Of a DNA stretch of 64,000 bases, positions 43,872 through 60,029 are shown in pieces. This DNA is from Clostridia bacterium (GTDB taxonomy: Bacteria > Bacillota > Clostridia > Oscillospirales > CAG-272): the NCBI GenBank assembly GCA_017483305.1, contig JAFULC010000044.1, positions 127,866 through 191,865 on the forward strand. Direction: 5' to 3'. The position numbers were made by a program, and so were the translations under genes. A model generated the notes under the pieces. That model had not been told where the DNA came from. It worked only from the letters and a program-made list of their open reading frames with translations, and made no database searches. The first letter of the stretch is position 1; each line of letters begins with the position of its first letter.

Positions 43872-43947
43872 AGGGGTATAGCTCAGTTGGTAGAGTACTG
43901 GTCTCCAAAACCAAGGGTCGTGGGTTCAAGTCCTTCTGCCCCTGCCA
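43872..43947 (+). tRNA. trnW: tRNA-Trp (anticodon CCA), CCA-3' encoded; solitary gene with own promoter and terminator
   Basis: Hand fold: acceptor AGGGGTA/TGCCCCT, D arm GCTC-AGTTGGTA-GAGT, anticodon loop CTCCAAA, T loop TTCAAGT. Two non-Watson-Crick stem positions were noted (27-43 C/A, 50-64 T/T). Confidence 0.85.
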
Positions 43948-43988: not shown

Positions 43989-44160
43989 AAATCCGTCCTT
44001 ACGGACGGGATAAATCCCACTAACGTGGGATGAAATCACATCGTGATGAAATCCCGCTTCGCGGGGAGAGAGGACGGATTTAATTTCATCTGAAGCCACA
44101 GGCTGAAGATTTCATCCGAACGGAGTGAGGATTTCATCGTGCGCAGCGCGATTTCATTTT
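43989..44160. repeat. Mirror-symmetric motif/hairpin array A: GAT(G/A)AAATC x3 forward, then GATTTCAT(C/T) x4 reverse, interleaved with unrelated short GC-rich hairpins
   Basis: Forward copies at 44009-16, 44029-37 and 44045-53. Reverse copies at 44083-90, 44108-16, 44130-38 and 44150-58. Intervening hairpins include CCGTCC-ttac-GGACGG, CCCAC-taac-GTGGG, CCCGC-ttc-GCGGG and ATCGTGC-gca-GCGCGAT. Confidence 0.8.
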
Positions 44161-44196
44161 CGTTACACGCCTTCGGCGCAATTTACCGCGAAACGG

Positions 44197-45178: not shown

Positions 45179-45233
45179 TTGTAATTTATATAATTATGTG
45201 CTATAATGATAATTGCAAGAACTTATTCTTGCA
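45179..45233 (+). promoter_or_regulatory. Promoter (TTGTAA-17-TATAAT) of the XRE gene plus inverted repeat TGCAAGAA-ctta-TTCTTGCA at the predicted transcription start
   Basis: -35 at 45179-84 and -10 at 45202-07, with the IR at 45214-45233. Confidence 0.65.
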
Positions 45234-45297
45234 CGATAAACAGAAAAATTATGACTATGAATGTTTAAGTCTTTCAAAAAGAGGGAGAGCATCAGCA

Positions 45298-45513
45298 ATG
45301 AAAATCAGTTACAATAAGCTTTGGAAAGTACTCGTGGATAAGAAAATGAGCAAAGCGGATCTTAGACGAGCAACAGAGATGGCTTCCAACACGATGACAA
45401 GCCTAAGACGTGACAAAAAAGTTTCACTCGACGTCTTGCTTCGTATCTGTGAGGCTCTCGATTGTGACATTGGTGATATAATGAGCGTTTATAAAGAGGA
45501 ACAGAACGCATAA
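45298..45513 (+). CDS. XRE-family helix-turn-helix transcriptional regulator (71 aa)
   Basis: MKISYNKLWKVLVDKKMSKADLRRATEMASNTMTSLRRDKKVSLDVLLRICEALDCDIGDIM is a typical short Cro/C1 HTH. GAGGGAGAG RBS. The track's start at 45196 is rejected. Confidence 0.85.
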   Translation: MKISYNKLWKVLVDKKMSKADLRRATEMASNTMTSLRRDKKVSLDVLLRICEALDCDIGDIMSVYKEEQNA

Positions 45514-45573: not shown

Positions 45574-45765
45574 TTATGAATTGGTATCGGTAGGATCGGA
45601 GTCGCTATCGGATATGTTCTCAAGTGCGTATTCCAAGCACTGAACAACGATCTTATTCATAGACGTGTTGTATTTTCCTGCAAGCATCTCGAGCTGTTCA
45701 ACGATGTGTACGGGAATACGGAACGTTTTGTTTACTGATTCAAAGCCTTTTTCAAATTCTAACAT
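45574..45765 (-). CDS. Ribbon-helix-helix (CopG/Arc-like) DNA-binding protein with acidic tail (63 aa)
   Basis: The beta strand FRIPVHIV is followed by helices EQLEMLAGKYNTSMNKIVVQCLEYAL. Confidence 0.6.
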   Translation of the reverse strand: MLEFEKGFESVNKTFRIPVHIVEQLEMLAGKYNTSMNKIVVQCLEYALENISDSDSDPTDTNS

Positions 45766-45972: not shown

Positions 45973-48048
45973 ATGATGGCTGATAAGAAATATAGCGTTA
46001 TTTTAGAAAAGGTTGGCAATCAGCCCCTGATGACTACCAAGATATTATGTGGAGAGTTAGAGCTTGGACTCGCTAAGGCGAAAGGTCTGGTGGACAAGGT
46101 TCCGTCTACCATTGCGACCGATCTTGAAAGCGCAAAGGCTCTTGAACTGAAGAAAAAGCTTGAAGATGCTGGAAATACTGTGTCTATCCCCGGCTTGAAG
46201 ATTGAAGCCGAGCCCACTGCTAAAAAGAATGTGAAGTCGTCAGCGGTATCATCGGACGACGCCTTTGCTGCTATCTTTGGCGGTAGCACAACACCGAAGA
46301 CTACTACTGTCAAAAAGCAAAGCACATCAGGTACGACACCTAAAACAACCGCGGCAAAGGCAGAGCCGAAGAAAACTACGAGCAAAGCCCCGGCTTCCTC
46401 GAGTGATTCCTTTGATTCACTTTTCGGCGGTGCTGCTCCCCAAAAAGAGACAAAAACGCAGCCTAAAGCATCTGTGGCGAAGACTATGCGCAAGGAATAC
46501 AGCAATGGTAGCTACGAAGGTGAGATGAAGGACGGCGAGCCCCACGGATTCGGCACGTACCGTTGGAATGACGGCGACATTTACACAGGTGAGTACGTAA
46601 ACGGCACTCGTCATGGAAAGGGCAAGTTTGTTTTCGCAAGCGGTAACTATTACGATGGCGAATGGGCCAATGGAAAATATCACGGTCATGGCATTTTCCG
46701 TTGGAGCGACGGAGACGAATTTGACGGCGAATGGCAAAATGGCCAGCGCCACGGCAAAGGCAAATGGACATATTCCGACGGCAGATATTATACGGGCGTT
46801 TGGGAAAACGGTGAGAGTATTAGTTCTTCTTCAATCGTATATCCCTCAACCTCAAATGCCACGACTGCAACAAAAACTGCCCCGAAAGCTACAACCACCA
46901 AGGGTCGAATTCAATACGAACACAGCTATTACGAAGGTGACCTCGTGGATGGAATTCAGCACGGCAAAGGCGTGTACGTTTGGGATAACGGAACAAGATA
47001 CGAGGGAGATTTCTTTGAAGGAAATATAACGGGTCGCGGTATTTGTTATTACACAAACGGCAATCGCTTCGAGGGCTGTTGGAAGAATGGCATAAGGAAC
47101 GGTGATGGCACATTTTACGAATATGACGCAGGCATCAAACAGTTTCGTTACAAACACGTAGGCGTATGGTCGAATGGCAAGCGCGAGGGCGTTTTTGAAT
47201 GTTATCTTTATGACGAGGACGATGCGTCTAAGCTGCGCTCTTACGATTTCTATAAAAACGACGAAATGAAGATAGCTTATATGGTGCGTGCATTGTACGA
47301 AAAAGGGATCACCACCAAGGAGGGCGTGCTGCGTTATCACGAGGAGCAGACCTCGCACAGATCGAAAAGAGCCACGCCATCTGTCTCTACCCGATCATCA
47401 AGTTCTAAAGACTATGCACTGGATTGCGCCGACAAAGCAATGCAAGCGTATACCAACAGAGACTATTTCCGAGCGGCTTATTACTTGTATCAATGCGGTA
47501 GTAGTGGAAGCACGTTTTATCGTGACGTAGCAGAAAGATGCTATCATCCCTCGGGTGCTACGGGATATTCGTACGTAGAAAACATCTTAACCGGAGATAG
47601 CTTGGGTAACGTTTCCGACGATGAAATCAATATTTGCGCATTCGTTCTTGACAAATTTGTTCCGAAAGGCACTAAGAACAGCAAAACGTATCGCGCTTGG
47701 TGCTATTATAGATCGGGAGATGTTAAGAAGGCTGCCGGGATGATACCGAATAGGGGCTTGATGTTCTACGACGGAAGGATACAAGACATAAACGAAATCA
47801 TGGGCGGAAAACCGCTTTCCAAAATCACCCCGTATAGCGATGAGATTATGGCAAACCTGCTTATATGTAAATTATGGGCGAAGTTAGATATGGAGCACGA
47901 TTGGGTAAGCCAGCTTCGCAGAAACGAGCATCTCAAGGAGAAGCTTTTGCTTGCGGAAGCATATATAAAATTTGCCAAAAAGGAAAGATGGCAATATGAA
48001 GTTGCCGAGATTGAAAAGGATATGCTCACATTTAAGGCGGCGCTGTGA
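45973..48048 (+). CDS. Ribosomal L7/L12 C-terminal-domain homologue fused to two MORN-repeat blocks and a ~270-aa helical C-terminal domain
   Basis: 691 aa. KYSVILEKVGNQPLMTTKILCGELELGLAKAKGLVDKVPSTIATDLESAKALELKKKLEDAGNTVSI aligns with the L12 CTD consensus (FDVIL..aG.kKI.vIK.VR.iTGLGLKEAKdLVd.aP..v...vsKeeAe.iKkkLEeaGA.V). Thr/Lys-rich linkers. MORN repeats such as YEGEMKDGEPHGFGTYRWNDGDIYTGEYVNGTRHGKGKF. The ATG at 45976 is an alternative start. Confidence 0.8.
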   Translation: MMADKKYSVILEKVGNQPLMTTKILCGELELGLAKAKGLVDKVPSTIATDLESAKALELKKKLEDAGNTVSIPGLKIEAEPTAKKNVKSSAVSSDDAFAAIFGGSTTPKTTTVKKQSTSGTTPKTTAAKAEPKKTTSKAPASSSDSFDSLFGGAAPQKETKTQPKASVAKTMRKEYSNGSYEGEMKDGEPHGFGTYRWNDGDIYTGEYVNGTRHGKGKFVFASGNYYDGEWANGKYHGHGIFRWSDGDEFDGEWQNGQRHGKGKWTYSDGRYYTGVWENGESISSSSIVYPSTSNATTATKTAPKATTTKGRIQYEHSYYEGDLVDGIQHGKGVYVWDNGTRYEGDFFEGNITGRGICYYTNGNRFEGCWKNGIRNGDGTFYEYDAGIKQFRYKHVGVWSNGKREGVFECYLYDEDDASKLRSYDFYKNDEMKIAYMVRALYEKGITTKEGVLRYHEEQTSHRSKRATPSVSTRSSSSKDYALDCADKAMQAYTNRDYFRAAYYLYQCGSSGSTFYRDVAERCYHPSGATGYSYVENILTGDSLGNVSDDEINICAFVLDKFVPKGTKNSKTYRAWCYYRSGDVKKAAGMIPNRGLMFYDGRIQDINEIMGGKPLSKITPYSDEIMANLLICKLWAKLDMEHDWVSQLRRNEHLKEKLLLAEAYIKFAKKERWQYEVAEIEKDMLTFKAAL

Positions 48049-48076
48049 TAGCTTTGATACGGCAGAAGGAGAAATT

Positions 48077-49981
48077 ATGAACGGTGAAGTAATATTATCA
48101 ATATGCGCGATACTGACACTGCTGATTTTCGCAGTGGGTGTGGCGCTCGTCATACTGAATAGAAAGGATCTCAAGCGCGTGGTGCGCGTTCTCGGTGTGT
48201 GCGTCTTTCTGATGCTGATGTCGGGAATCTATCCGTATTATCACGAGGAAACCTATGCCATTGGTCTGACACTGGTTGAGAGTATGTGCGCGATGCTGTT
48301 AAACTCCAATCCCGGAGAGATCCTTGCGGGATTTAACGGCTTTGATGTGGCGTATCTCGGTATTTATAAAACAGCACTCCTCGTGCTCTTAATTATCGCA
48401 CCGCTTTTCACCGTTGGTATTACCTTGTCCTTCTTCTCGGAAAAGTTCACAAGAATAATTTACCGTATCCGCTCGGAGTTCAGCGATTCTTATTTGTTTT
48501 CGGCAATCAACGAGCGTACCCTGTGTATCGCCGAGGACGTTGCCGAAACCGACAGAAAGGCAGTTATCGTTTTTGCCCTGCGCATTTCCGAGGATGATAT
48601 CGATGCAGAATCACTTGCTCGCATTAAGGACATAGGCGCATATATAATAAGCGATGACGTATCGCAGCTGAAGCATAGTCTGCGTCGCACGCGCAATTAT
48701 TACCTTCTTGATACCAACAATAGCGAAAATCTTGAAGCAGGACTGCGAATATACCAAAAGTACAACAAAGAGCATACCGATAAGGTAAATATGTGGATCT
48801 ACACAAAAAATGAGATCACGGAGGTTATCTTCGACTACCTATACGAGACCTTCAACGTCAGACTTATCAATGAGGAAGGACTGATTGCAAGAACTCTTGC
48901 TACCGATTACCCCGTCTTTGACGCGGTTAAGGACGGAAGACTTTCAATATTGATTGTGGGTGGTGGTCATATCGGGCTTGAAATCCTTCGCACTATGACT
49001 ATGTGCTCCTGTCTTGGAGATGACGTTGACGTTGACATCAACGTAATAGACTTGAACGGAGAAAAATCGAGAGATATATTTGAAAAAGACTCCCCCGGTC
49101 TTGCAGATAAATGGAAGGTTAAATTCCATAGCGCAGACGTAAAATCTGTTGCTCTTGCAAAAGTACTTGAAGGCTTAGACCCCTCGTATATCGTGATCTG
49201 CCTTGGCAATGAAACACTTAATATGGAAACCGCAATTTATATTCGCCGTAAATACGGCATCGAGAACGGTCTGCCCCTCATTCACACCCTCGTGGATCAT
49301 AAGAGCATTGACGAGCAGATCATTCCGAATCTTTGCGTTTCGGATTGGAAGTACAATACAGAACACCGAAGATTTGAAAGTACGCCTATTTGCTCATTTG
49401 AAATCAAGACCTTCGGCAGCTACGAGGATACCTACAAGGGACTTCGCATCGGTGCATCCTATCGGGACTGTCTCGCTGTTGCGGTGAACGCCGCTAACCG
49501 CGGTATTACGGCGGTGGATAGTCAAAACAACGCCGAGTGGCTTACCGATCTGTACAACCAGGTTGATTTTTACAAGGATTATTCCGACGCCTTTGCAGTA
49601 TCCATTCCCTATAAGCTGTGGCTTCTCGGTCTTGAGCTTGTTGATGACGGAGACGGAGAGGTTTCGGATCTGGAAAACCTTCTCGAAGCTAATATAGACA
49701 GACTTCGCAGGAACGAAAACAAACGCTATGAAGCTTTTATGCGCAGTAAAGGGTGGACACAGATGATGCCGAGCGAGGTCAGAGACGGAAGAATGGGCAA
49801 TAAGCTTCAAAAGAAGCACGCAAGAATTGATCCGCAGTATACCAAGGAGCTTGAAGAGATGACAGGACGGGATTTTTCTAAGGAGGACGTTCGTTCCATT
49901 ATGAACCTTCCCACCGTGATCCGCATTGCAAATGCTCTTTACGGCAGAAATTATTCTGTCAGAAAAAACAAGATTAAATAA
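48077..49981 (+). CDS. Membrane protein: 4-5 N-terminal TM helices, Rossmann/TrkA-N-like region(s) and a C-terminal RyR-like domain
   Basis: GAAGGAG RBS lies before ATG 48077. LSILIVGGGHIGLEILR is a GxGxxG motif. The C-terminal NENKRYEAFMRSKGWTQ...KKHARIDPQYTKELEEMTGRDFSKEDV resembles bacterial RyR domains (weak). Confidence 0.6.
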   Translation: MNGEVILSICAILTLLIFAVGVALVILNRKDLKRVVRVLGVCVFLMLMSGIYPYYHEETYAIGLTLVESMCAMLLNSNPGEILAGFNGFDVAYLGIYKTALLVLLIIAPLFTVGITLSFFSEKFTRIIYRIRSEFSDSYLFSAINERTLCIAEDVAETDRKAVIVFALRISEDDIDAESLARIKDIGAYIISDDVSQLKHSLRRTRNYYLLDTNNSENLEAGLRIYQKYNKEHTDKVNMWIYTKNEITEVIFDYLYETFNVRLINEEGLIARTLATDYPVFDAVKDGRLSILIVGGGHIGLEILRTMTMCSCLGDDVDVDINVIDLNGEKSRDIFEKDSPGLADKWKVKFHSADVKSVALAKVLEGLDPSYIVICLGNETLNMETAIYIRRKYGIENGLPLIHTLVDHKSIDEQIIPNLCVSDWKYNTEHRRFESTPICSFEIKTFGSYEDTYKGLRIGASYRDCLAVAVNAANRGITAVDSQNNAEWLTDLYNQVDFYKDYSDAFAVSIPYKLWLLGLELVDDGDGEVSDLENLLEANIDRLRRNENKRYEAFMRSKGWTQMMPSEVRDGRMGNKLQKKHARIDPQYTKELEEMTGRDFSKEDVRSIMNLPTVIRIANALYGRNYSVRKNKIK

Positions 49982-50006
49982 AATATAAAAAAGCGAGGAA
50001 ATGATA

Positions 50007-50633
50007 ATGGATATTATTAATGGGGTTAGAGAACTTTGTAAGGGCGAAAACGGTTTCGTAAATATGTTTGACAAGGCAAAAAGCGGCGGTAAGCTTGGAC
50101 AACTCACTGACGGCGACCGAGAAGCTGACCTTTTTGAAACGCTTCTTTACGGCAGCGCAAGAGAGACTCTCGTCGAAATGATAAACGATGCCTACAATTT
50201 CAAGCAATATGCGGTAGAGGCACACGGCTTGCTTGTGGAAGACGGTCTTGATGCTATGGATGCCAAGAGAGCGCTTGAGATATTCTTTATAGCATTTGGC
50301 TTCCCCGGATACAGAACTATGGGAGCACAGGAAACCATCGTTGACGAGAGCGGAAACTCTAAAACTGTGTATGAGGGTGAGGTAAAGAACGGCAAGCCTC
50401 ACGGATGCGGTTCGCGCAACTTCTATTACGAAGGAAAATGGTCTGCTCTTGACGAATGTGTATGGATTGACGGTATAATGATTGGCTATGATTATGCCAA
50501 AGAGCTCGAATTCGACGCATTTGAAGATCAGAAAATTGGCTTCGTTATTAACGATCGCTTCGTAGGAAATATAAGAATTATTGCAAGTGACGGCGAGGAA
50601 TTCGACGACGGCGGTACAAAGTTTACCGTTTAA
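50007..50633 (+). CDS. Hypothetical protein with a short MORN-like segment
   Basis: YEGEVKNGKPHGCGSRNFYYEGKW. GAGGAA RBS favours ATG 50007 over 50001. The antisense ORF 49974-50639 is rejected. Confidence 0.6.
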   Translation: MDIINGVRELCKGENGFVNMFDKAKSGGKLGQLTDGDREADLFETLLYGSARETLVEMINDAYNFKQYAVEAHGLLVEDGLDAMDAKRALEIFFIAFGFPGYRTMGAQETIVDESGNSKTVYEGEVKNGKPHGCGSRNFYYEGKWSALDECVWIDGIMIGYDYAKELEFDAFEDQKIGFVINDRFVGNIRIIASDGEEFDDGGTKFTV

Positions 50634-50666
50634 AATCACACATTACTTATGCTTTAAGGAGTTATT

Positions 50667-51065
50667 GTGAGCAATTTAAAATGCTTGAAAAAGGCAAATG
50701 AGGGTGACACCGAGGCTATGCGCATTGGTGAGAAGCTCTATAATTTGCAGGATGCGACCGAGGATGAGGTAGAGGCAGGTACGCTTTGCCTTAACAAATG
50801 GTATGTAGAGCGCAAATATAAAACTCAGGTATGCGAGCCCGGTCGTTCAAGTCCTTATTACGATATGAGAAGCGAAATGCAGGAGCTCTCTTTTGAAGAA
50901 TTGATCTTCAATGGAGGAGAATGCATTGGAGCATACCACGACGAGCTGGTTTTCCTGTTCGACGATGAAAAAACTCATTATCATCAAAAGTATCTTGGTG
51001 AAATGAAGATCAGCTACGACCAAGGAATCGATTTCTACGACTATTACTATCTGCACATCAGATGA
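50667..51065 (+). CDS. Hypothetical protein (132 aa), GTG start
   Basis: AAGGAG lies 5 nt before GTG 50667. The N-terminal KKANEGDTEAM resembles a Sel1 half-repeat. Confidence 0.5.
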   Translation: MSNLKCLKKANEGDTEAMRIGEKLYNLQDATEDEVEAGTLCLNKWYVERKYKTQVCEPGRSSPYYDMRSEMQELSFEELIFNGGECIGAYHDELVFLFDDEKTHYHQKYLGEMKISYDQGIDFYDYYYLHIR

Positions 51066-51085
51066 TGCAGTGAAAGGAGCAGACT

Positions 51086-51214
51086 ATGTTTGATGCTATG
51101 AAGGTTAAAAATGATTGCGTAAACTGGATACGAGAGTTCTTCCGTGAGAACGGTCCCGACTGTAATGCCGTTCTCGGCATTGAAATTGTAAACCGGGAGG
51201 GATACATAAAATGA
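51086..51214 (+). pseudogene. 42-codon ORF that looks like the N-terminal stub of an NH3-dependent NAD+ synthetase (PP-loop ATPase), ending just before the SGGxDS motif
   Basis: MFDAMKVKNDCVNWIREFFRENGPDCNAVLGIEIVNREGYIK. The VNWIRE..(6-7 aa)..AVLGI pattern matches NadE N-termini (..wlr......g.k.vvlGlSGGiDS). AAAGGAG RBS. Its stop overlaps the next start (ATGA). Confidence 0.4.
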
Positions 51215-53448
51215 AAAAACTAATGAAAATAACGTCATTGCTGCTTTCCATAGTCATGCTTACGTCAACATTCACAGGCTGCGGATTTATGTTCGGCGGC
51301 ACCGAGGAGCAGGAGGATGAATTTAATCCGCCGTATCTTGAAAATTACTATGTGAATAAGCATGATCCCGTCGTTGTTTCGGGCGGAATCGAAATACATA
51401 AATACGACGAGGATGCCGAAGCCTTATGGATGGGCGGATATCCTTATCACGGCGGATTTGAGTTCAGAGGCAGCACGTTCGGTGAGAATAAAGCCATAGT
51501 AGATCTGCCCCTTGACGGACTTTATGAGAATATCAGCTTTGTCATCGGTGGCAGATGCGGACACATTACCGAGGTGATCGATGAAGACGGCAATGTTACG
51601 TATCCCTATGATGCCAGTCAGTATAACTGCTCGCCTCCCACGCTTTACGGATATGCGAAAGAGCAAAAGGTAGGTCTTCAGTTCTGGGTGGATGACAAGA
51701 TGGTACAGGAGGTTATTTTCTCCAACTATCAGGTACCTGTCCGTTATACCTTCAACGTTTCGGGTGCACAGAAATTTACCTTCAAGCAGGTAGCGGCAGA
51801 ACCCATTGTTATACCCGTTCTTGAGCTTACTGTTTGGGAGGGAGAAGCCCACGAAACGGGACACATTACCGAACCTGCCGGAAGCGAGCCGGTTCAGCTT
51901 ATCAAGGATCTGAAGCCATATCAGATTCCCGCTACGTCGAGCGCGGTGTATTATCCCAACGTTGACCCTACCTACGAGGGCAGAAACCACATCAATATGA
52001 GCACCATTCGATACGAGAACGTAATAGCAACCTACGTGTCGCAGGGACTTATGACCGATGACGAGGAAGATATTTATTTTAACCTTGAGGGCAAATACAA
52101 TTATCTGACCTTTACCGCGGGTGTAGCAGACAGAACCACGAACAACAGTGATGGCTCGGCATGGCTGACCGTCTATGCCGACGGCAAGATCATTCACGAG
52201 GAGGTCTATTCCTCCCACGAGCTTCCGAGAAGGACAACGGTCAATGTCGAGGGCTGTCATCAGCTCAAATTTGCATGGCTCACTGACGAAGGAAACCTGG
52301 AGTACGGAGACGGAACGGGTAATTTCTTCGGTATCGGCGACGCTTACGTTGCTACCACCGAGGCGGCACTCGAAACGATCAAATATTCTTCCCGTGATCT
52401 GCCCGACAGACCCGTAAAAATGGTATCCGAGCTTGGCGCGTTCGCAATTTCCAGCAGTGTTGAGCAAGCCGTATTTGACGGTTCTTCCCAGCTTAGCACC
52501 TTCTCTATGGGCGGTGTGAAGTACAACGAAGGTATTATTCTCATCGCATCCAACAGTATGCTTGAAACCAGACCTGCGTGCGTATCCTTCAATCTTGGCG
52601 GAAAATACGATACTATCTCCTTTATTGCAGGTCATATTGCCAACAGTGATGTTTACAAGAACGATCAGATCGAGATTTACGCCGACGGCGTTCTGATAAA
52701 GACAATCAATGTGGATTGTACCATGTTGCCTGAGAAATATGTGGTGGACGTAACGGGCTGTCAGCATCTTGAATTTATTTCCGGTAAGGCAACCAACGGT
52801 AGTTGGTATCGCCCTGCGCTGGGTATTGTAAACTTAATTGCTTATCCCGACGGATATGTGGAAACTGATCTCTTCCCCGAGAGAAGTCCCGCAGATTATG
52901 GTAAATCTTGTGATCTGATCGAAACTTTCGGCTTTTATGACGTACATAGCGGAGGACGTACGGAGACCGATATCGGCGGTGTTGACGTTGAGGACGGTTA
53001 TTATGACGGCTCGACTCAGAAAAACTATTTCACAATCGGCGACAGAAAGATTAATAGTGGCGTACTTCTCCGAACCAGCGTGCATTTAAGCTTGGATACA
53101 GATATGATACAAGATGCCATTTTCTTCACTGGATTGGTTGTTTTGGCAGGAGAGGAGGCGCACGAATCGGCGTTTGCTCTGGCGAATATCAAGGACAGCG
53201 GCTATACTTCCGTGACCTTCACTGTTGCAATGCAAAAAGAAACAGGCTATGAGGATGAAACGATCTTAAAGATCGGTGCTGATGACAAATGCGTGAAAGA
53301 GATTACGCTTTTCAAGGATATGAAGCCCACCACGTATACAGTAGAGCTTGGCGAAGATTGCGGAAGACTTTTGTTCTTCCTTGAATGCACCATTGAGGAC
53401 GACACCTCGCATACCTATGCGATCTACGATATTAAACTGAATAAATAA
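51211..53448 (+). CDS. Lipoprotein with four NPCBM-like (putative carbohydrate-binding) repeats
   Basis: 745 aa. Signal/lipobox is LLSIVMLTSTFTGC. Four repeats follow the pattern Y..(I/L)(S/T)F.(A/I)G.......(V/I)..(Y/W).D......(V/I)........(V/Y).V.(V/L).G...L.F, as in NPCBM/F5_F8-like modules. Confidence 0.6.
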   Translation: MKKLMKITSLLLSIVMLTSTFTGCGFMFGGTEEQEDEFNPPYLENYYVNKHDPVVVSGGIEIHKYDEDAEALWMGGYPYHGGFEFRGSTFGENKAIVDLPLDGLYENISFVIGGRCGHITEVIDEDGNVTYPYDASQYNCSPPTLYGYAKEQKVGLQFWVDDKMVQEVIFSNYQVPVRYTFNVSGAQKFTFKQVAAEPIVIPVLELTVWEGEAHETGHITEPAGSEPVQLIKDLKPYQIPATSSAVYYPNVDPTYEGRNHINMSTIRYENVIATYVSQGLMTDDEEDIYFNLEGKYNYLTFTAGVADRTTNNSDGSAWLTVYADGKIIHEEVYSSHELPRRTTVNVEGCHQLKFAWLTDEGNLEYGDGTGNFFGIGDAYVATTEAALETIKYSSRDLPDRPVKMVSELGAFAISSSVEQAVFDGSSQLSTFSMGGVKYNEGIILIASNSMLETRPACVSFNLGGKYDTISFIAGHIANSDVYKNDQIEIYADGVLIKTINVDCTMLPEKYVVDVTGCQHLEFISGKATNGSWYRPALGIVNLIAYPDGYVETDLFPERSPADYGKSCDLIETFGFYDVHSGGRTETDIGGVDVEDGYYDGSTQKNYFTIGDRKINSGVLLRTSVHLSLDTDMIQDAIFFTGLVVLAGEEAHESAFALANIKDSGYTSVTFTVAMQKETGYEDETILKIGADDKCVKEITLFKDMKPTTYTVELGEDCGRLLFFLECTIEDDTSHTYAIYDIKLNK

Positions 53449-53460
53449 GGAGGCAACACC

Positions 53461-54180
53461 ATGAGGTATTTGACTTGGGATGAAGTAAAAAGCCTTGACA
53501 AATTCTTGGTCGAGGACAATGACGATGCCGTCGGCATCGAGATCCATACCGGATTCTATGATCTATCAGCGGACAACCGCTACAGCAAGCCGGAAACAGT
53601 AAAGGCTTATTCTCTGGAGGAACTGGCCGGCGGTGATTTTATCCAGATGGGAACAGAAACCCTGCGTGCAGTGGTGAGCAATCGTCTTTATTGGACGGAT
53701 AGTCGGAATTGGGTTGAAAATTCGGGCACGGATGCTGCCTATATCGGTGCCCGCCGGGGGAACGGATACGAATATGAGCGGGCGATACTGACCTTCAAGG
53801 ATACGCTGGAACGGCTGCCGGACGAGGAAGTGATTTCCCTGAAACGCTTCCTGGTCAGGGACAACAAACGGGTCAAAGCGGTGCGCATCATGCCCGGCTA
53901 TATGGGCATCGGCGGCTCCAATACCTCCGGTTTTTCATCGGATAGTGAGCGGATTCGAGATTACCCTCTGGAATATCTGAAAAACAACGAATTTATATGG
54001 GTCCAGGGCGTTTCTGTTCGGGCGCTGGTGGATGACGTGCTGTATTTCTGCCGCAAGGGCGCTGACGGAAACAGCAAGGTGTTTACCCTGAATTATAGAG
54101 AACGGGATACCATTTTTCATGGTGAGGGTGTCGCCTATGATACGATCGCTGCAACGGAAGTTGTATTGCTGCTTAAGTAA
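53461..54180 (+). CDS. Hypothetical protein (239 aa) with an internal duplication; deviant codon usage
   Basis: LDKFLVEDNDDAVGIEIHTGFYD... is repeated as LKRFLVRDNKRVKAVRIMPGYMG.... CTG/CGG/GTG codons dominate from about 53580. Confidence 0.6.
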   Translation: MRYLTWDEVKSLDKFLVEDNDDAVGIEIHTGFYDLSADNRYSKPETVKAYSLEELAGGDFIQMGTETLRAVVSNRLYWTDSRNWVENSGTDAAYIGARRGNGYEYERAILTFKDTLERLPDEEVISLKRFLVRDNKRVKAVRIMPGYMGIGGSNTSGFSSDSERIRDYPLEYLKNNEFIWVQGVSVRALVDDVLYFCRKGADGNSKVFTLNYRERDTIFHGEGVAYDTIAATEVVLLLK

Positions 54181-54201
54181 GAGAAAGTGAGGAATAACAA
54201 T

Positions 54202-54723
54202 ATGGCTTGGAGAAGTTACTATATTAACTGTGAAAAAATATATGGCATAGACGAAGAAGAAAAAGACGTTTGCATTATGTACGACTTAAATATCCCACCC
54301 CACGGCGGCATCCGAGAGGAATGGACAACAAGGGGAATGAAGAACGGCTCGTCCAAGGTTTTATTTGTGGAGTATTGCAAGGAGGATGACGATCCCGACG
54401 GTGTATGGGAAGCTTTTGGTATGAAGGCAGAATCGGTATATACCTTTACGGTAAATGCGAAAGAGGCAGATCCCGAGAAGCTGTTTGTTTACACCCTTTA
54501 TAAGGACGGCAAGCTTGGTGTCGGATTTGACATCGATACCAACACCGCCCGCGCTATTTTAGTATTTCCCTTCCCTCAGAATATAACCGCAGAGCAATTG
54601 CTTGCCGTTGCGAAAAAAGCAGAGGATGCTCCGCGAGACTTGGAAGCAGTTGAGCAGTTCGTCGTTGAAAATCTGTTGTGTGGTGCGAAAGACGTGACGT
54701 GCCTTGCATTTTTCAACTTGTAA
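54202..54723 (+). CDS. Hypothetical protein (173 aa)
   Basis: GAGGA RBS lies 8 nt before ATG 54202. No family recognised. Confidence 0.55.
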   Translation: MAWRSYYINCEKIYGIDEEEKDVCIMYDLNIPPHGGIREEWTTRGMKNGSSKVLFVEYCKEDDDPDGVWEAFGMKAESVYTFTVNAKEADPEKLFVYTLYKDGKLGVGFDIDTNTARAILVFPFPQNITAEQLLAVAKKAEDAPRDLEAVEQFVVENLLCGAKDVTCLAFFNL

Positions 54724-54768
54724 TCATACAGAATAAAGGCAACTAACCGAAAAAAGGGAGTGATGCTT

Positions 54769-55767
54769 ATGGCAAAGAAGCTTTATTTACATATTAAATG
54801 GGATGAAACAAGAGAAAAAAACGGTTCAAGAGCAGGCGATGACGGCATTTATGACGTAGAGATAAACGAGGGTGATGAGTTTAAGCTCATCTGCCACCTG
54901 AAAAAAGCAACCGTTACGAAGCTCACCGATGACGAGGTAACTCTTGATATTCCCGATAAGGGCGAGTATTTACTTAGGTTGAACGAGACCGCAACGATCC
55001 GTTATAGCGACGGACATCAGTCTTGCGGTGACTGGGTCGACGAGAGATTGACCTACGAGATCAAGCTGTCGAATATGAGCCTTGACGAGTACGAGGCATC
55101 CTTGCCCGAGTTCGATATTAAAGACGGAGTGCTCATAAATGCTCGTCCTAAAGGAGAGGTGGCGGTTGTACCCGAGGGAGTTGTTGAAATCGGGCACAAG
55201 GCCTTCTGTGAGACAAAGATCAAAGAGGTAGTTTTGCCGTCAACTCTTAAAAAAATCAGTTCGTTCGCCTTTTCGAAGTGCCGTTATTTGAAACGTGTAA
55301 CGCTCCCCGAAGGACTGGAAGAATTAGGATTCTACGCCCTTTCTGATACAGCCATCGAGGAGATCAATTTCCCGAGGAGCCTTCGATATATCGACGATAG
55401 CGTCTTTCGCGGAACTCCCTTCCTTAAAAGGATAAAGGACGATAGATTTGTCATACTGGGAGAGCGTTTCCTCTACGGCTACAATGGCTATGACGACACG
55501 GTGGAGATTCCCGACGGTGTTGAGGTTATATGCTCCTGCGCCTTTGACTCAAGAGAGAAAGACAAGGACTATTATTACGTTACACCGAAAAAAATCATTC
55601 TGCCAGATAGCGTAAAACAAATTGATGGATGCGCATTCAGATATCAGTATGGTCTTAGGGAAATTAATTTGCGTGCAGATATGGACATCTCTGCCACAGC
55701 CTTTGACAAATCGGGATATGAGGAAAGCTTTAAGGCGTTCCTCGCCGCTAAAGGTGAGAAAAAATGA
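54769..55767 (+). CDS. BspA-type leucine-rich-repeat (LRR_5) protein with N-terminal small beta module
   Basis: VVPEGVVEIGHKAFCETKIKEVVLPSTLKKISSFAFSKCRYLKRVTLPEGLEELGFYALSDTAIEEINFP are typical ~23-aa BspA LRRs. No signal peptide. Confidence 0.75.
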   Translation: MAKKLYLHIKWDETREKNGSRAGDDGIYDVEINEGDEFKLICHLKKATVTKLTDDEVTLDIPDKGEYLLRLNETATIRYSDGHQSCGDWVDERLTYEIKLSNMSLDEYEASLPEFDIKDGVLINARPKGEVAVVPEGVVEIGHKAFCETKIKEVVLPSTLKKISSFAFSKCRYLKRVTLPEGLEELGFYALSDTAIEEINFPRSLRYIDDSVFRGTPFLKRIKDDRFVILGERFLYGYNGYDDTVEIPDGVEVICSCAFDSREKDKDYYYVTPKKIILPDSVKQIDGCAFRYQYGLREINLRADMDISATAFDKSGYEESFKAFLAAKGEKK

Positions 55768-56234
55768 AGGATTTAGTTATACAATGTAAAGAATACATTG
55801 CAAAAGGCGGCGAATCCATCATAAAAAGAGCGTTCGGAAGAATGCCCCGTATGGCAGAAATCAATATGAGTGAAGTGGAACTCTATATGTTGGAGAATAA
55901 GGACGCTTCATTCAACGAGCTGCTTTTTATGATGATAGACCGAACGGGACAGAAAGACAGCGACGTGTATAAGAGGGCACGAATAGACCGCAGGCTCTTT
56001 TCAAAAATCCGTTCAAGTAAAAAATACGTTCCGTCAAAGAAAACTGTCATTGCGTTGTGCCTCGCTCTTGAGCTTTCGAGAGATGATGCAAATATACTAC
56101 TTGCCTCGGCAGGATACAGCCTGTCAAGGTCGGATGATTACGATCTCGCTATTGCCTTTTGCATATCAAGGGGAATATTTGATTTTAACGATATAAACGA
56201 GCTTTTATATGAATTAGGCTTTGAGGTTTTTTAA
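55764..56234 (+). CDS. HTH-domain protein (XRE-like fold), probable DNA-binding regulator
   Basis: 156 aa. Its ATG overlaps the upstream TGA. DSDVYKRARIDRRLFSKIRSSKKYVPSKKTVIALCLALELSRDDANILLASAGYSL is a recurrent Firmicutes HTH module. Confidence 0.55.
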   Translation: MKDLVIQCKEYIAKGGESIIKRAFGRMPRMAEINMSEVELYMLENKDASFNELLFMMIDRTGQKDSDVYKRARIDRRLFSKIRSSKKYVPSKKTVIALCLALELSRDDANILLASAGYSLSRSDDYDLAIAFCISRGIFDFNDINELLYELGFEVF

Positions 56235-56273
56235 ATAATGCCGACGCATTAAAAAACAGGACAGATCGTAAAT

Positions 56274-56317
56274 GTCGCCGTAAAAGCGACCAAGTAAAAG
56301 CCAAGGTGTGAGATAAT
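56274..56317 (+). promoter_or_regulatory. GTCGC-N7-GCGAC palindrome exactly 21 nt upstream of a GATAAT hexamer (copy 2)
   Basis: GTCGCcgtaaaaGCGAC at 56274-56290 and TGaGATAAT with GATAAT at 56312-56317. About 50 nt of similarity with 45883-45935. Confidence 0.55.
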
Positions 56318-56341
56318 ATAGGCGTAAAGGAGAGTACAATT

Positions 56342-56965
56342 ATGAATAGTATAAGACTTAAAACAAAATACGCAGAAAACGAATTACCAATAGGCGCATC
56401 AAAGCTTTTCGGCAATCCCGACGTCCCCCAAGGCTTCGAGTGGCCGTACATTGAGGTGGATGGTGAGGAGTACGATCTTTCCTTCATCGGGCAGATAAAT
56501 CTTTCCGAGGTTGCAAAGTACGATAAGGACGGTCTGCTTCCGGGGAAAGGTATGCTGTATTTCTTCTACGACCTTGACGAAATGCCTTTTAGCCCCGATA
56601 ATCTTAACGCTTGCAGAGTTATCTATCACGAGAGCGATGAAAACCTTGAGCCTATACGCTTTGTTGACGAGGATGGAGAGGATCTTTCCTTCAGAGAAAT
56701 GCAGGTAGAATTCGAGTGTGTAGAAGCAGGATTTTTGGGCGATGAAGGAGAAACCCACCTGCTTCTCGGTGAACCCTCTATGGATAACGGGTTCTTTTAT
56801 GAGTGCATTGACGGCTGGCAGATGCTATTCCAGCTTGACTCGCTTGAAACCGACGATATTTGCATCAACTTCACCGACGAGGGCTTCCTGTGCTTCTATA
56901 TTGACAAGGAAAAGCTTTCGGAAAAGGATTTTTCCGACGTAAGAATTATGCAGATATACTCTTAA
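56342..56965 (+). CDS. DUF1963 / YwqG-family protein
   Basis: SKLFGNPDVPQGFEWP...LSFIGQINLSEV...LPGKGMLYFFYDL...HLLLGEP...LFQLDS...GFLCFYI is the family hallmark order. Confidence 0.8.
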   Translation: MNSIRLKTKYAENELPIGASKLFGNPDVPQGFEWPYIEVDGEEYDLSFIGQINLSEVAKYDKDGLLPGKGMLYFFYDLDEMPFSPDNLNACRVIYHESDENLEPIRFVDEDGEDLSFREMQVEFECVEAGFLGDEGETHLLLGEPSMDNGFFYECIDGWQMLFQLDSLETDDICINFTDEGFLCFYIDKEKLSEKDFSDVRIMQIYS

Positions 56966-56977
56966 AGGAGGCTTATT

Positions 56978-57181
56978 ATGGCTGAAAAATTAAAATGCCC
57001 ATACTGCGGTAGCGAAAACCTAACCCGTATGGACGGCAGCGGAACTCTAAAGAAATACGGCAACGACGTTATGATCGATATCGCTCCCGACATCGTTTAC
57101 TGTAACGATTGCAAAAAGGATTTCAGAGCACCGTTCTTTGACGATCTGACGCTCGACGAGGCGATTTTAGATCAAGAGTGA
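56978..57181 (+). CDS. Zinc-ribbon mini-protein (67 aa)
   Basis: CPYCGS...CNDCKK, with RBS AAAGGAGG. Confidence 0.6.
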   Translation: MAEKLKCPYCGSENLTRMDGSGTLKKYGNDVMIDIAPDIVYCNDCKKDFRAPFFDDLTLDEAILDQE

Positions 57182-57191
57182 GGTGATTACG

Positions 57192-57473
57192 ATGAAATTA
57201 AAAATCATTGATTATTTCTGGGCAGTTGGACACAGGACGAAAAGAAAGGGCTCTCACAAAATTCCCCTTGCCGAAGGCGAGTTGCGTGAAATTAACTATG
57301 TGCAGTTCAGAATTGACAAGGTGGAAAAGGATAAGGCGCAGATTTCGGTTATCCGTCGTGACGGAACGGTTATAAAGGAAATCACCGTAGAAAAAGGCCG
57401 ACGTTCCTACTACCATCCAAGGTCTATGGATGCAGGACACGAATATACACTGAAGCTTACAAAATTTTTCTAA
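57192..57473 (+). CDS. Small beta-module protein (93 aa), member of the island's recurrent mini-domain set
   Basis: VQFRIDKVEKDKAQISVIRRDGTVIKEITVEKGRRSYY, with RBS GAGGTG. Confidence 0.55.
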   Translation: MKLKIIDYFWAVGHRTKRKGSHKIPLAEGELREINYVQFRIDKVEKDKAQISVIRRDGTVIKEITVEKGRRSYYHPRSMDAGHEYTLKLTKFF

Positions 57474-57492
57474 ACATAAAAGGAGAAAAATC

Positions 57493-57720
57493 ATGGATAA
57501 GAAGGAATTTAAGAATTTACTTGCAAAAGCTGAAGGCGGCGATGCGGAAGCAATGTATCTTGTAGGACTTGAGTATGAAGCAGGTGAGGTCGTTACAGCC
57601 GACGGCGAAAAGGCTATCGAATGGATGAATAAGGCTGCCGACCTTGGACATAAGGAGGCGCTTGATTGGCTCAAGCAGTATTACTTTGATGATGATGCCG
57701 GCACACAGGCTTATTCTTAA
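57493..57720 (+). CDS. Sel1-repeat protein (75 aa)
   Basis: AEGGDAEAMYLVGLEYEAGEVVTADGEKAIEWMNKAADLGHKEA. Confidence 0.75.
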   Translation: MDKKEFKNLLAKAEGGDAEAMYLVGLEYEAGEVVTADGEKAIEWMNKAADLGHKEALDWLKQYYFDDDAGTQAYS

Positions 57721-57735
57721 CAGGAGGTGAATGCC

Positions 57736-57999
57736 ATGGAGAGAGAAAAAGCTCGCTGTACAAAATGCGGTGCCTTTGAAGTGGTATTCGTGGATCGAAG
57801 CGCCAATCCATTCAATACCAAGCCCCCAAGATTCGTTTGTCAGAAATGCGGTTGCGAATACGAGCTTGATTCGGGCATCGGCGTAATGAATCGCAATACG
57901 ATAAATCCCTTCCCATGCCCCGAGCGTGACCTTGACATTGACGATCCGTTTACAGCAGAGATGAAAGAAAGGATCAAGTCAATGAGAAAAACCGATTAA
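57736..57999 (+). CDS. Zinc-ribbon mini-protein (87 aa)
   Basis: CTKCGA...CQKCGC. AGGAGG lies 8 nt before ATG 57736. Confidence 0.6.
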   Translation: MEREKARCTKCGAFEVVFVDRSANPFNTKPPRFVCQKCGCEYELDSGIGVMNRNTINPFPCPERDLDIDDPFTAEMKERIKSMRKTD

Positions 58000-58017
58000 G
58001 CATAGGAGGAAGAAGAT

Positions 58018-58596
58018 ATGTCAAGAGAATTTGATTATGCAATGGAGCTGAAAAAGAACAGCAACGTCGAAGAAGCAAAGGCTTATTTTGAAAAAGCTGC
58101 GCAGGGTGGCGAGCCCGAGGCATATATGGAGCTTGCAAGGCTTGCAGTTCCCGAGGCGGGTGAGCATTATTACAACTATTCAAAGCTTGACGTAACCCTG
58201 CTGCCTCTGGGCTATCACAAAACTGAATTTGAATATTATCTCAAGGCGAGTGAGCTCGGTCACACAAGAGCCATGGTTTACGTCGGAATTGCCTATAAGC
58301 AAGGATATCTCGTAAACCGTGACTACGATATGGCATTTAATTATTTTGCAAAGGCGACTGAATTAGGTGACGATTATCTCGCTCCCTACTATCTTGCCGA
58401 ATGCTATGAAAATGCGCTCGGCACCGAGATGGACGAAAACGCAGCGGTGCTTTACTACACAATGTGCGCCGAGCACGGTAACATCCCTGCAATGCTTGCT
58501 CTTGCAAGAATTTATAAAGAGGGTCTTGGTAGTATTGAAAAGGATGAACAAAAATCAACAAGATACTTCTTTATGAGTGGTATTGGAAGAAATTGA
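58018..58596 (+). CDS. Sel1-repeat protein (192 aa)
   Basis: AAQGGEPEAYMELARL, ASELGHTRAMVYVGIAYKQG, ATELGDDYLAPYYLAECYENALG and CAEHGNIPAMLALARIYKEGLG. Confidence 0.8.
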   Translation: MSREFDYAMELKKNSNVEEAKAYFEKAAQGGEPEAYMELARLAVPEAGEHYYNYSKLDVTLLPLGYHKTEFEYYLKASELGHTRAMVYVGIAYKQGYLVNRDYDMAFNYFAKATELGDDYLAPYYLAECYENALGTEMDENAAVLYYTMCAEHGNIPAMLALARIYKEGLGSIEKDEQKSTRYFFMSGIGRN

Positions 58597-58661
58597 TATC
58601 AGCTATCAGTATAAAAACATAATTATTACAAGGTTTTGAAATCTTTAGAGGAGAATGTGTG

Positions 58662-59786
58662 ATGAAAGAGGAAATCAAAAATCAAATCCTCGGTTTGTCG
58701 ATATATAACGCGCGTACCGAAAAAGAGGACATCGTATGGATTGCAAAAGAGCTTTGCGAAAAGTACGGTTGGAGAACCGATGATATGATATATACACGCA
58801 CTGGTTTCGATCCGGTCGAGCACCGTCAGTACAGCGAGGTCGTTCGTGATGAACGCAAGGCTTGGAATTACACTGTTGATGCGGCGCTTGAGGAAAAGGA
58901 CGTTTATGCCATCGCAACTCTGCTGTTTTTCAAGAAATACGGCACGATTGACGAGACTGCTTTCTATGTAACCAAGGAGTCGCTTTTGAGGGATATAGTA
59001 GAAATACTTGAAAGCATCGAGGAAAAGGACGCATTTGTTTATTTCCTTATCGGCAAAGCGAATTTCATAGCGCGCGGAGTAGAATATGACTTTGATAAAG
59101 CGCACGAGTGCTTCCTTTTGGCGGCTGACGGCGGTATTGAGATTGCAAAACTGTTTGCCCTCGAGATCGAAGACGATTTTGAGGGAATCTTCAAGGAAGC
59201 GAGTAAGTTGATTGAGAAGTATCCCGATAGTCACATTATTAAGTTCTACCTCGCATTCTGCTGTTATTACGGTTACGGAACCGAGAAGAATTATGAAAGG
59301 GTAGTAGAGCTCGTCAAATATACCGAAACAATAGAAAACTATAACGACGATCCCATAGATTACTATTTTCTTTCAAGCAGATATTTGCTTGGACTTTGCT
59401 ACTTCCACGGCTATGGTGTGGAGAAAAATCTCAGCCGAGCGGAGCTGCTGTTCAGATATTCTGCCAGCGCAGGCACTCCCGAAGCGTATTACTGCCAGGC
59501 AATAACCAAACTTTTATCGGATGACAGTAAACATACGGGGTATATATACGATCTTTTGAAGAAAAGCGCGTACGGTTATTATCTCCCGGCGATCAGAAAG
59601 TTTATGCTTTGTCTCCGAAAGGGCTACGGCACCACACCCGACAAGGAGCAGTATGTTGCATTCTCGGACTATTATGATCACTACAAAGAAACTCAAAAAA
59701 ACACCTCTGATCTTGGAGTTGAAGCGGATCATTGCAATCTTATCGATCACGAAAACAACATCATCGAGGACGATGAAATAGACTAA
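58662..59786 (+). CDS. Sel1/TPR-like repeat protein (374 aa)
   Basis: AADGGIEIAKLF, YYGYGTEKNYERVVEL, LGLCYFHGYGVEKNLSRAELLFRYSASAGTPEAYY. The antisense ORF 58626-59234 is rejected. Confidence 0.7.
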   Translation: MKEEIKNQILGLSIYNARTEKEDIVWIAKELCEKYGWRTDDMIYTRTGFDPVEHRQYSEVVRDERKAWNYTVDAALEEKDVYAIATLLFFKKYGTIDETAFYVTKESLLRDIVEILESIEEKDAFVYFLIGKANFIARGVEYDFDKAHECFLLAADGGIEIAKLFALEIEDDFEGIFKEASKLIEKYPDSHIIKFYLAFCCYYGYGTEKNYERVVELVKYTETIENYNDDPIDYYFLSSRYLLGLCYFHGYGVEKNLSRAELLFRYSASAGTPEAYYCQAITKLLSDDSKHTGYIYDLLKKSAYGYYLPAIRKFMLCLRKGYGTTPDKEQYVAFSDYYDHYKETQKNTSDLGVEADHCNLIDHENNIIEDDEID

Positions 59787-59803
59787 ATTCAGGAGGAAAC
59801 GCT

Positions 59804-60028
59804 ATGGAGAACAAAAGAAATTACAAATACGATCCTGTCGAGGATACTTCCGAATATCTTGCAATAAAGGACGAGCTTGAGGCAAAAATCATTGAAAGAA
59901 TGGGCGGCGAAATGACAAGAGGTAACGCACATCTGTACACCACTCTCAAAAAGGAAATTTTGAAGAAGGATTACGGCATTGATTGGAAGTCGCCTCAGGA
60001 GTTAAATCCGAGGATAAAATTTAACTGA
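59804..60028 (+). CDS. Hypothetical protein (74 aa)
   Basis: AGGAGG RBS, helical and charged. No family. Confidence 0.5.
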   Translation: MENKRNYKYDPVEDTSEYLAIKDELEAKIIERMGGEMTRGNAHLYTTLKKEILKKDYGIDWKSPQELNPRIKFN

Positions 60029-60029
60029 T

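Follow-up and report, generated by a model that had tools for sequence, protein, structure and literature searches.

A homologue of the bL12 C-terminal domain is encoded beside a predicted tandem-RCK, RyR-domain membrane protein in gut and rumen Oscillospirales

What might the head of the ribosomal stalk be doing when it is encoded away from the genes of the ribosome and immediately in front of a gene for a membrane protein? The bL12 C-terminal domain (CTD) is the landing pad on the ribosome for EF-Tu, EF-G, IF2 and RF3, and to our knowledge little work has dealt with it away from ribosomes. The question is raised by two adjacent genes in a 64,000-nucleotide stretch of DNA from a Clostridia bacterium (Oscillospirales; CAG-272; assembly GCA_017483305.1, contig JAFULC010000044.1), the whole of which we refer to as the window. 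Gene 1 (45973..48048, + strand) is an open reading frame for a protein of 691 residues with an L12-like head, a tether, MORN repeats and a helical domain; gene 2 (48077..49981, + strand) encodes a protein of 634 residues that is predicted to have a membrane domain, two tandem RCK domains and a RyR domain. An earlier note on this DNA had proposed that gene 1 makes a soluble L12 decoy for translational GTPases, tethered by its MORN repeats and coupled to gene 2 as a membrane effector. Here we report the domain identities of the two proteins, the conservation and adjacency of their genes, and a pairing that is specific to one clade. The gene pair is real and conserved, and it joins known domains in a new conserved combination. 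All of the relatives of the two genes are metagenomic, and we found no description in the literature of L12-CTD/MORN proteins, of the wider family of L12-head and motif proteins with its MORN fusion, or of the superfamily to which the product of gene 2 belongs.

The L12-like head occupies residues 5-75 of gene 1 (45985..46197, +), where the earlier note had placed it. The Pfam model Ribosomal_L12 (PF00542) matched residues 8-72, equivalent to model positions 2-66 of 67, with an E value of 1.8e-10 and a score of 41.4 bits (gathering cut-off, 25.9 bits). When residues 1-80 were compared with all PDB chains using phmmer, only chains of bL12 were returned (best E value, 5e-7) and the whole of the CTD was covered. 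A profile of 17 family members, searched against the PDB, likewise returned only bL12 and mitochondrial bL12m (best E value, 1.7e-11), and on this basis a ClpS-like identity for the head was ruled out. The head is also the best-conserved segment of the gene 1 family, with a mean pairwise identity of 0.84. As judged by these matches, gene 1 begins with a true bL12 C-terminal domain.

The product of gene 1 is nonetheless not a bL12 ribosomal protein, because three features that define bL12 fail. First, only four residues precede the CTD, and hence gene 1 has no L12 N-terminal domain for dimerisation and L10 binding, in agreement with what had been noted earlier; the homologues share the same start point. 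Second, gene 1 scored 32 bits against TIGR00855, the NCBIfam equivalog model for full-length bL12, below the cut-off of 84.4 bits. Third, the rplJ-rplL operon context was not seen: the neighbours of gene 1 are a gene for an HTH_26 regulator, a ribbon-helix-helix-like open reading frame or a Sel1 gene, and gene 2. The likeness to bL12 thus extends over the full length of the C-terminal alpha/beta domain and to the presence of a long flexible region in both proteins. The differences are that in gene 1 the order is inverted and the head precedes its tether, that gene 1 adds short motifs, MORN repeats and a TPR-like domain, and that residues for contacting translation factors have been altered.

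The pattern of these alterations is informative. In Escherichia coli L12 the residues that are reported to contact EF-G are V66-V68, K70, L80 and E82 (PMC5887453). Mapping by alignment revealed that K70 is retained and invariant in the gene 1 family and that L80 and K84 are retained, that V66 is conservatively replaced by an invariant Leu, A67 by Met or Lys, and V68 by an invariant Thr, and that E82 has become Lys, Ala or some other residue and is variable. Half of the EF-G-contacting residues have therefore changed, and K70 and L80 are the only ones that have not. Three further residues, K65, I69 and R73, we take to lie in the conserved factor-binding face as well; K65 has become an invariant Pro, I69 an invariant Thr, and R73 a Cys in most members of the family and an Arg in a few. 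The helix-4/5 face (QPLxTTKxL...GLGLA) is strongly conserved inside the family yet unlike that of bL12, and it would therefore have a specific partner, bound otherwise than in the canonical manner of bL12 and its factors. Because the face has been remodelled in this way, the partner is probably not a translation factor that is bound canonically.

Behind the head come, in order, a tether that carries two short motifs, a first MORN block of five units, a spacer rich in Thr and Ser, a second block of four to five degenerate units and a helical domain. The linkers are of low complexity (16% Lys, 16% Thr, 15% Ala and 14% Ser, some 60% in all). The motifs, which are acidic-aromatic and follow the consensus [ND][DE]xFDA[IL]FG, are DDAFAAIFG (residues 95-103; 46255..46281, +), in which F98, I101, F102 and G103 are invariant in long and short members of the family, and SDSFDSLFG (residues 144-152; 46402..46428, +), in which F147, D148, F151 and G152 are invariant. 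In both motifs, then, F, [IL], F and G do not vary, and the motifs rank with the head as the best-conserved parts of the family. Across all of the loci that we fetched the motif was confined to proteins of the L12 family, in two copies per protein.

A search with residues 1-105 of gene 1 recovered 214 clusters, mostly proteins of about 153 residues that are composed of the L12 head, the linker and the two motifs. These stand-alone proteins account for more than 100 sequence clusters, and in them motif 2 forms the extreme C-terminus (...NDAFDALFGK). Full-length relatives of gene 1, with L12 and MORN parts together, made up about 55 clusters, from metagenomes only, and the family as a whole was seen solely in gut and rumen Oscillospirales metagenomes. 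One short member for which a source name was available bears the NCBI label 'ribosomal protein L7/L12'. Since most relatives have the head, linker and motifs alone, the conserved unit is the L12 head with its tether and two motifs, and the MORN repeats and helical domain are an add-on. Other add-ons are an insert of about 330 residues in forms of 1,040 residues and different C-terminal domains in the proteins P0064 and P0086, so that the L12-motif core is found with no extension, with MORN repeats and the helical domain of gene 1 (domain A), with the insert, MORN repeats and domain A, or with MORN repeats and other helical domains. We also observed a metagenomic protein of 418 residues (P0058) in which an L12-like head, 75% identical, is joined to a mannitol-dehydrogenase C-terminal domain; it is either a fusion or an assembly chimera.

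The MORN repeats of gene 1 gave 130.6 bits with Pfam MORN (PF02493) in seven significant stretches. Counting by the pattern YxGxWxxGxxxGxG yields about nine to ten units in two blocks, namely block A (five units; residues 173-282; 46489..46818, +) and block B (about four to five degenerate units, from Pfam and alignment; residues 313-410; 46909..47202, +), the latter being where the family varies most (0.56 mean pairwise identity). The repeats themselves had thus been correctly recognised, and the earlier count of about 12 was too high. The helical domain had been correctly anticipated, too. In an AlphaFold 2 (AF2) model of residues 425-691 it is a confidently predicted all-alpha solenoid (residues 473-691; 47389..48045, +), with a mean predicted local distance difference test (pLDDT) score of 83.8 over the model and of about 88-96 in most ten-residue blocks of the domain. 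Foldseek revealed no significant relative of this domain of about 220 residues either in the PDB (best E value 0.05, TM-score about 0.2, to 14-3-3/TPR-like folds) or among viral models (best E value 0.17), and for that reason we call it just TPR/14-3-3-like.

Gene 2 starts with an ATG at 48077, 28 nucleotides after the TGA stop codon of gene 1 (48046-48048), with the ribosome-binding site GAAGGAG ahead of it; the earlier note had given the same spacing and a strong ribosome-binding site. A TTG at 47972, offered as the start in a mechanical list of open reading frames, was ruled out, as the homologues start with MNGEV. Direct searches of Pfam, NCBIfam and PDB sequences with gene 2 gave nothing significant, and so a route through fold searches and distant homologues was needed. 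An AF2 model built from 60 homologues had a pLDDT of 89.5, and its top matches in the PDB by Foldseek were GsuK (2.5e-6), TrkA (3.6e-6 onward), Slo1 and the CASTOR gating ring, all with a probability of 1.0. The earlier outline of transmembrane, Rossmann and RyR-like parts is correct, and with the comparisons below it can be refined to a transmembrane domain followed by tandem RCK domains and a divergent RyR repeat.

The membrane domain (residues 1-122; 48077..48442, +), delimited by AF2 secondary structure, hydropathy and invariant columns, has three long, strongly hydrophobic transmembrane helices and two short helices, rather than the four or five transmembrane helices first proposed. Its best-conserved feature, P109-x4-G114-xx-LSFF, lies at the cytoplasmic end of transmembrane helix 3. 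Next comes a first Rossmann/RCK-like domain (residues 136-265; 48482..48871, +), recognised by its beta-alpha-beta pattern in the AF2 model and by the Foldseek matches to tandem-RCK proteins; its nucleotide loop is degenerate (FSAINER), with F141, N145, E146 and R147 conserved. The second Rossmann/RCK domain (residues 286-410; 48932..49306, +), also with a beta-alpha-beta pattern in the model, contains the loop GGGHIG (residues 295-300), in which the earlier note had seen a GxGxxG Rossmann region, and Asp325 at the end of beta-2. G295, G300 and D325 are nearly invariant among 72 distant homologues, which have only 19-38% identity to gene 2. The Pfam model TrkA_N (PF02254) had no match on gene 2 itself and matched 8 of the 60 close and 15 of the 72 distant homologues (best E value, 1e-9); an example is P0384, which scored 34.5 bits over residues 306-418.

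The cytoplasmic part of the gene 2 model superposes on the tandem-RCK gating rings of GsuK, TrkA, BK/Slo1 and CASTOR, and both the GxGxxG loop and the acidic residue that belong to a nucleotide-binding Rossmann fold are present in it. It differs from these proteins in having only 10-14% identity to them, three transmembrane helices, no TVGYG-type filter and an extra RyR domain. In residues 1-135 we found no GYG or GFG, and a sequence FTVGIT sits within predicted transmembrane helix 3. A canonical RCK-gated K+ channel was accordingly rejected as an identity for gene 2, there being no selectivity filter in its sequence.

The RyR assignment was reached by comparing profiles. Pfam RyR (PF02026) matched neither gene 2 nor any of its 60 close homologues at E values up to 1, and in one homologue (P0376, residues 554-623) there was a sub-threshold match. 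Among the 72 distant members six had RyR matches (best E value 1.1e-16), and the strong ones fall in an extra C-terminal repeat of long members that gene 2 does not have. Because those matches lie outside the shared region, the claim for gene 2 rests on hhalign, which aligned the tail of the superfamily with the canonical RyR domains of P0498, P0479, P0448 and P0431 (up to 61.3 bits with Pfam RyR) at a probability of 97.4%, with an E value of 1.4e-11 over 87 columns. Residues ~537-618 of gene 2 share the signature EHxRWNAFMRSEGW...KLHP...W..L...D..I..IP. The RyR-like tail that had been surmised for gene 2 is therefore best described as a divergent RyR domain (residues 540-625; 49694..49951, +). 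Compared with bacterial RyR proteins, gene 2 has the divergent repeat as its tail and longer superfamily members add a canonical second one; in P0431, P0448, P0479 and P0498 (890-991 residues) the two follow one another in tandem, an arrangement also seen in the ryanodine receptors of eukaryotes. In an exhaustive profile search the superfamily comprised 2,242 representatives (50% clustering) at E values up to 1e-3 and 365 at E values up to 1e-30, mostly of 600-680 residues and with the identical layout.

How closely are the two genes associated? We examined synteny in loci picked by protein identity together with 29 loci from GTDB species representatives; the counts rest on a narrow clade. A gene of the L12 family was found directly upstream of gene 2 in all 18 of the loci in which gene 2 was at least 80% identical to that in the window and upstream sequence was available. 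Across the paired loci the two genes are separated by 11-29 nucleotides with a ribosome-binding site, and the upstream partner may be of the short or the long form, even at equal identity of gene 2. Neither outcome that the earlier note had named as refuting its idea was seen: the L12 match is significant, and the two genes adjoin one another in many other genomes.

It is this strict, short-spacer adjacency in one clade that leads us to favour, tentatively and with somewhat less than even confidence, a model that makes the L12-like protein an ancillary subunit, located in the cytosol, of the RCK-RyR membrane protein. According to the model, gene 1 would encode a cytoplasmic, non-ribosomal paralogue of the bL12 stalk head, whose functional core would be the head, the long disordered Thr/Lys-rich tether and the two helix-forming acidic-aromatic motifs, which in this genome are joined to MORN repeats and to a helical domain of TPR-like form. 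Gene 2, which would be co-transcribed with it, encodes a protein built like the cytoplasmic gating apparatus of channels of the GsuK/BK/TrkA type, with a predicted nucleotide-binding tandem RCK, a RyR domain and no K+ filter. Docking of the L12-like protein, by its motifs or its head, would then modulate the membrane protein or determine where it is localised. Physical interaction between the two proteins, regulation and a channel-like activity of the membrane protein are all inferred.

A precedent is provided by KefF and KefG, which are ancillary subunits of the KTN-bearing K+ efflux systems KefC and KefB. As with gene 1, which would be co-transcribed with gene 2, the gene for a small cytosolic protein lies directly upstream of, and is co-transcribed with, that for a KTN/RCK membrane protein. 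One difference is that KefF and KefG are flavodoxin-like oxidoreductases, another that a CPA2 antiporter domain is lacking from gene 2, and the interaction between the products of genes 1 and 2 is our supposition. A second parallel is with junctophilin, a eukaryotic MORN protein that organises RyR channels. This is an analogy only: MORN repeats are absent from most members of the gene 1 family, and nothing physically links the bacterial MORN repeats to the RyR domains.

Several observations weigh against an ancillary-subunit role. An L12 gene was present in none of the 17 loci in which gene 2 was 74% identical or less, and homologues of gene 2 with 52-57% identity stood alone among housekeeping genes (tig-clpP-clpX-lon at one locus and spoIIAA-spoIIAB-sigF at another). 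Since homologues at this distance never have an L12 gene, the membrane protein would appear, from gene content, to work without the L12 protein. At other distant loci a MORN-only protein is encoded directly upstream of gene 2 (1,150 residues in L031-L033 and 283 residues in L035), and at yet others gene 2 lies in arrays with DUF1963, Sel1, kinase, PP2C and vWA genes. Conversely, L12-motif proteins with 55-60% identity (L013, L014, L044 and L045) are followed not by gene 2 but by a gene for an unrelated protein of 391 residues, and for this reason we consider the L12 gene to be associated more closely with the genes that open its array (HTH_26, Sel1, L12) than with gene 2. Its constant companions are the HTH_26 regulator and a protein of 76 residues with a single Sel1 repeat, the gene for which is immediately upstream in 16 of the 20 L12 loci. 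Finally, synteny in one narrow clade can reflect inheritance rather than selection.

The 76-residue Sel1 protein is well conserved (KSKKLRxLIKxAKMGKPYAMYQLGICYQLGR...AEAGYAPAIEWxKDY; L010:6754-6984, L004:625-855, L044:7082-7312 and others) and is a candidate receptor for the FDAIFG motifs. As a separate observation on gene 2, a homologue of 41% identity is found in L007:1-17929 and in L008 amid genes for a Ser/Thr kinase, a PP2C phosphatase, a vWA protein, an NAD-synthase-like protein, DUF1963, Sel1 and MORN proteins, with no L12 gene; the set is of a signalling or conflict type.

The array to which the pair belongs has a sharp left edge. At a tRNA-Trp gene (cca; 43872..43947, +; ARAGORN, and Rfam tRNA at 59.6 bits) the housekeeping genes stop and a co-directional array starts, the GC content falls to 0.39 over 44-46 kb, and the GC skew changes sign. 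The tRNA gene may be the integration site, or boundary, of a genomic island whose far end lies outside the window. Right after it there is a match to Gut-1 RNA (RF01706; 43984-44057, +; 47 bits against a gathering score of 50), followed by a weaker, inverted copy (44104-44165, -). An Rfam scan of 43.7-51.3 kb detected these sub-threshold Gut-1 matches and the tRNA only; neither a riboswitch nor a ribosomal-protein leader was seen in front of gene 1.

Between the tRNA and gene 1 lie two small genes. The first encodes a Cro/C1-type HTH_26 regulator (45196..45513, +; Pfam HTH_26, 73.1 bits), whose real start is probably an internal ATG near 45298, giving a protein of 71 residues as in its homologues; the array is likewise opened by a gene for an HTH_26 protein of 70-78 residues in L001-L005, L010-L014 and L044-L045. 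The second, divergent from gene 1, is an open reading frame of 63 codons (45574..45765, -). It had no match in Pfam, and so its ribbon-helix-helix character is suggested by sequence alone; it is kept in L001-L003 (family F19), in the slot that the 76-residue Sel1 gene holds elsewhere.

Downstream, the pair heads a co-directional array that continues to at least 63.5 kb (50001-63530, +). Its first member (50001..50633, +) encodes a protein of 210 residues with one weak MORN unit (19.5 bits, under the Pfam cut-off), homologues of which occur in L002, L004, L010, L013, L017 and L040; the gene recurs downstream of gene 2 in related arrays, among them loci with no L12 gene. There follow an open reading frame of 132 codons, a gene for an NPCBM protein (745 residues), an LRR_5 gene, two DUF1963 genes, two Sel1 genes and many open reading frames of no known family. 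Pfam found no family for the array proteins of 236, 415, 228, 166, 113, 392, 483 and 481 residues, which hence give no functional clue. The content of the array differs between related genomes, and homologous arrays occupy different chromosomal sites, once by smpB (L013) and once by a recombinase/capsid/terminase element; in the latter case (L002:1-5700) the array borders directly on a small mobile element, which carries a serine recombinase, a phage capsid gene, a small terminase and a DUF3987 primase-like gene. In its gene content the array looks like an accessory island of the poly-immunity or conflict type. Gene 1, gene 2 and three downstream proteins had no match at E values up to 1 among the defence models of PADLOC-DB 2.0. 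In phage genomes the L12-motif part of gene 1 had no match and gene 2 had one weak, partial match, from which we conclude that the gene pair is not phage-borne. Elsewhere in the window are three consecutive giant open reading frames (15017-30671, +; 1,758, 1,567 and 1,691 residues) with Pfam traces of Laminin_G and Filamin only.

These surroundings bear on other explanations for the pair. One, which we consider possible though on balance unlikely, is that the L12-like fold has been recruited simply to bind proteins or to oligomerise, that it stands first in an array whose repeat proteins vary (Sel1, MORN, LRR, NPCBM and DUF1963), for example a poly-immunity-type or scaffold locus, and that the adjacency to gene 2 is a matter of clade inheritance. 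This would account for the constancy of the HTH_26 and Sel1 neighbours while the downstream partners vary, for the richness of the array in repeat, DUF1963 and Pfam-less proteins, and for the free swapping of C-terminal extensions on the L12-motif core. It does not sit well with an adjacency that is perfect wherever gene 2 is at least 80% identical, despite switching between short and long forms of the L12 gene, or with the very short intergenic spacers; and the conservation of the helix-4/5 face points to a specific, conserved partner.

A second explanation, which extends that of the earlier note, we regard as doubtful. It holds that the free L12 head, perhaps with the motifs, is a stalk mimic or decoy to which translational GTPases would bind, or else such toxins or phage proteins as dock on the stalk, and which either sequesters them or signals their presence to an RCK-RyR effector in an accessory conflict island. 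The L12 CTD on which it was founded is genuine and keeps K70, L80, K84 and the GLGL loop, with Arg at position 73 in a few members. The context is island-like, with the tRNA-Trp gene, the recombinase/capsid element, smpB and a variable gene content, and elsewhere among bacteria TIR or caspase domains are joined to MORN modules related to those of gene 1, although gene 1 itself has no such effector. An L12/ClpS-type domain has, moreover, been noted once as an insertion in vWA proteins of the vWA-MoxR conflict systems of Bacteroidetes (Kaur et al. 2020, PMC7159879), and is thus likewise found outside the ribosome in an accessory system. Those systems differ in their phylum and in the vWA host protein, in having no counterpart of the motifs or of the RCK-RyR partner, and in the presence of MoxR, which is missing from the gene 1 locus. 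Against the decoy, half or more of the factor-contact residues have been altered (V68T, I69T, K65P, R73C and E82 to Lys, Ala or a variable residue), only K70 and L80 of those that contact EF-G being kept and V66 being conservatively replaced, which weakens the functional claim; and neither the defence models nor the phage genomes offered a match for the L12 part. Two further points weaken the original proposal. MORN repeats are not the tether of the conserved unit, most relatives being proteins of about 153 residues that lack them, and gene 2 is not a dedicated effector, given its homologues that stand alone in housekeeping contexts and its want of a PADLOC match.

The motifs add a further point on the side of a decoy. 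In the P-stalk of archaea and eukaryotes (aP1, P1/P2), as in gene 1, a short acidic-hydrophobic helix motif with ...[LI]FG at its end is borne on a flexible tether. The tail of Pyrococcus horikoshii aP1 is EALAGLSALFG, and binding of aEF-2, aEF-1alpha and aIF5B requires its three hydrophobic residues (PMC5887453). The F-D-A-[IL]-F-G spacing of the gene 1 motifs matches that of these three residues (L103-S-A-L106-F107-G108), the motif is C-terminal in the short forms, and the pattern would be expected by chance at a rate of about 5e-4 per 100 residues. The similarity was, however, noticed post hoc, it is limited to six or seven residues, gene 1 has two copies of the motif, one of them internal, and the resemblance may be due to chance. 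Bacterial factors use the L12 CTD and not tails of the P-stalk type, and we know of no bacterial factor that binds archaeal-type stalk tails. A bolder version of the decoy would make the family a hybrid stalk mimic, in which a bacterial L12 CTD head and two archaeal/eukaryotic-type stalk-tail helices (phi-x-A-phi-F-G) on a tether act as bait for translational GTPases, ribosome-inactivating toxins or phage factors, their capture being coupled, within an accessory island, to a membrane channel of the RCK-RyR type; we judge this to be improbable.

Last, that the protein is an alternative stalk component, which joins the ribosome, for example via motifs in place of an N-terminal domain, and anchors ribosomes to the membrane protein, is very improbable: the L12 homology, a long tether that recalls the stalk hinge and the NCBI label on a short homologue speak for it, and the lack of an L10-binding and dimerisation domain, the low TIGR00855 score (32 against 84.4 bits), the location outside an rplJ-rplL context and the confinement of the family to one narrow gut clade speak against it.

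We retain the ancillary subunit, tentatively, as our working model for the pair. If the head still binds translation factors, the family would be a first case of a free-standing stalk mimic through which the state of translation, or an attack on translation, is linked to a membrane protein; failing that, the family would show how a ribosomal domain has been repurposed. For annotation, the L12-motif genes should not be counted as rplL, an error to which the label on the short member testifies. The analysis also provides a fold-level description, as predicted by the model, of a large and hitherto uncharacterised superfamily of membrane proteins in which a transmembrane domain is followed by tandem RCK and RyR domains.

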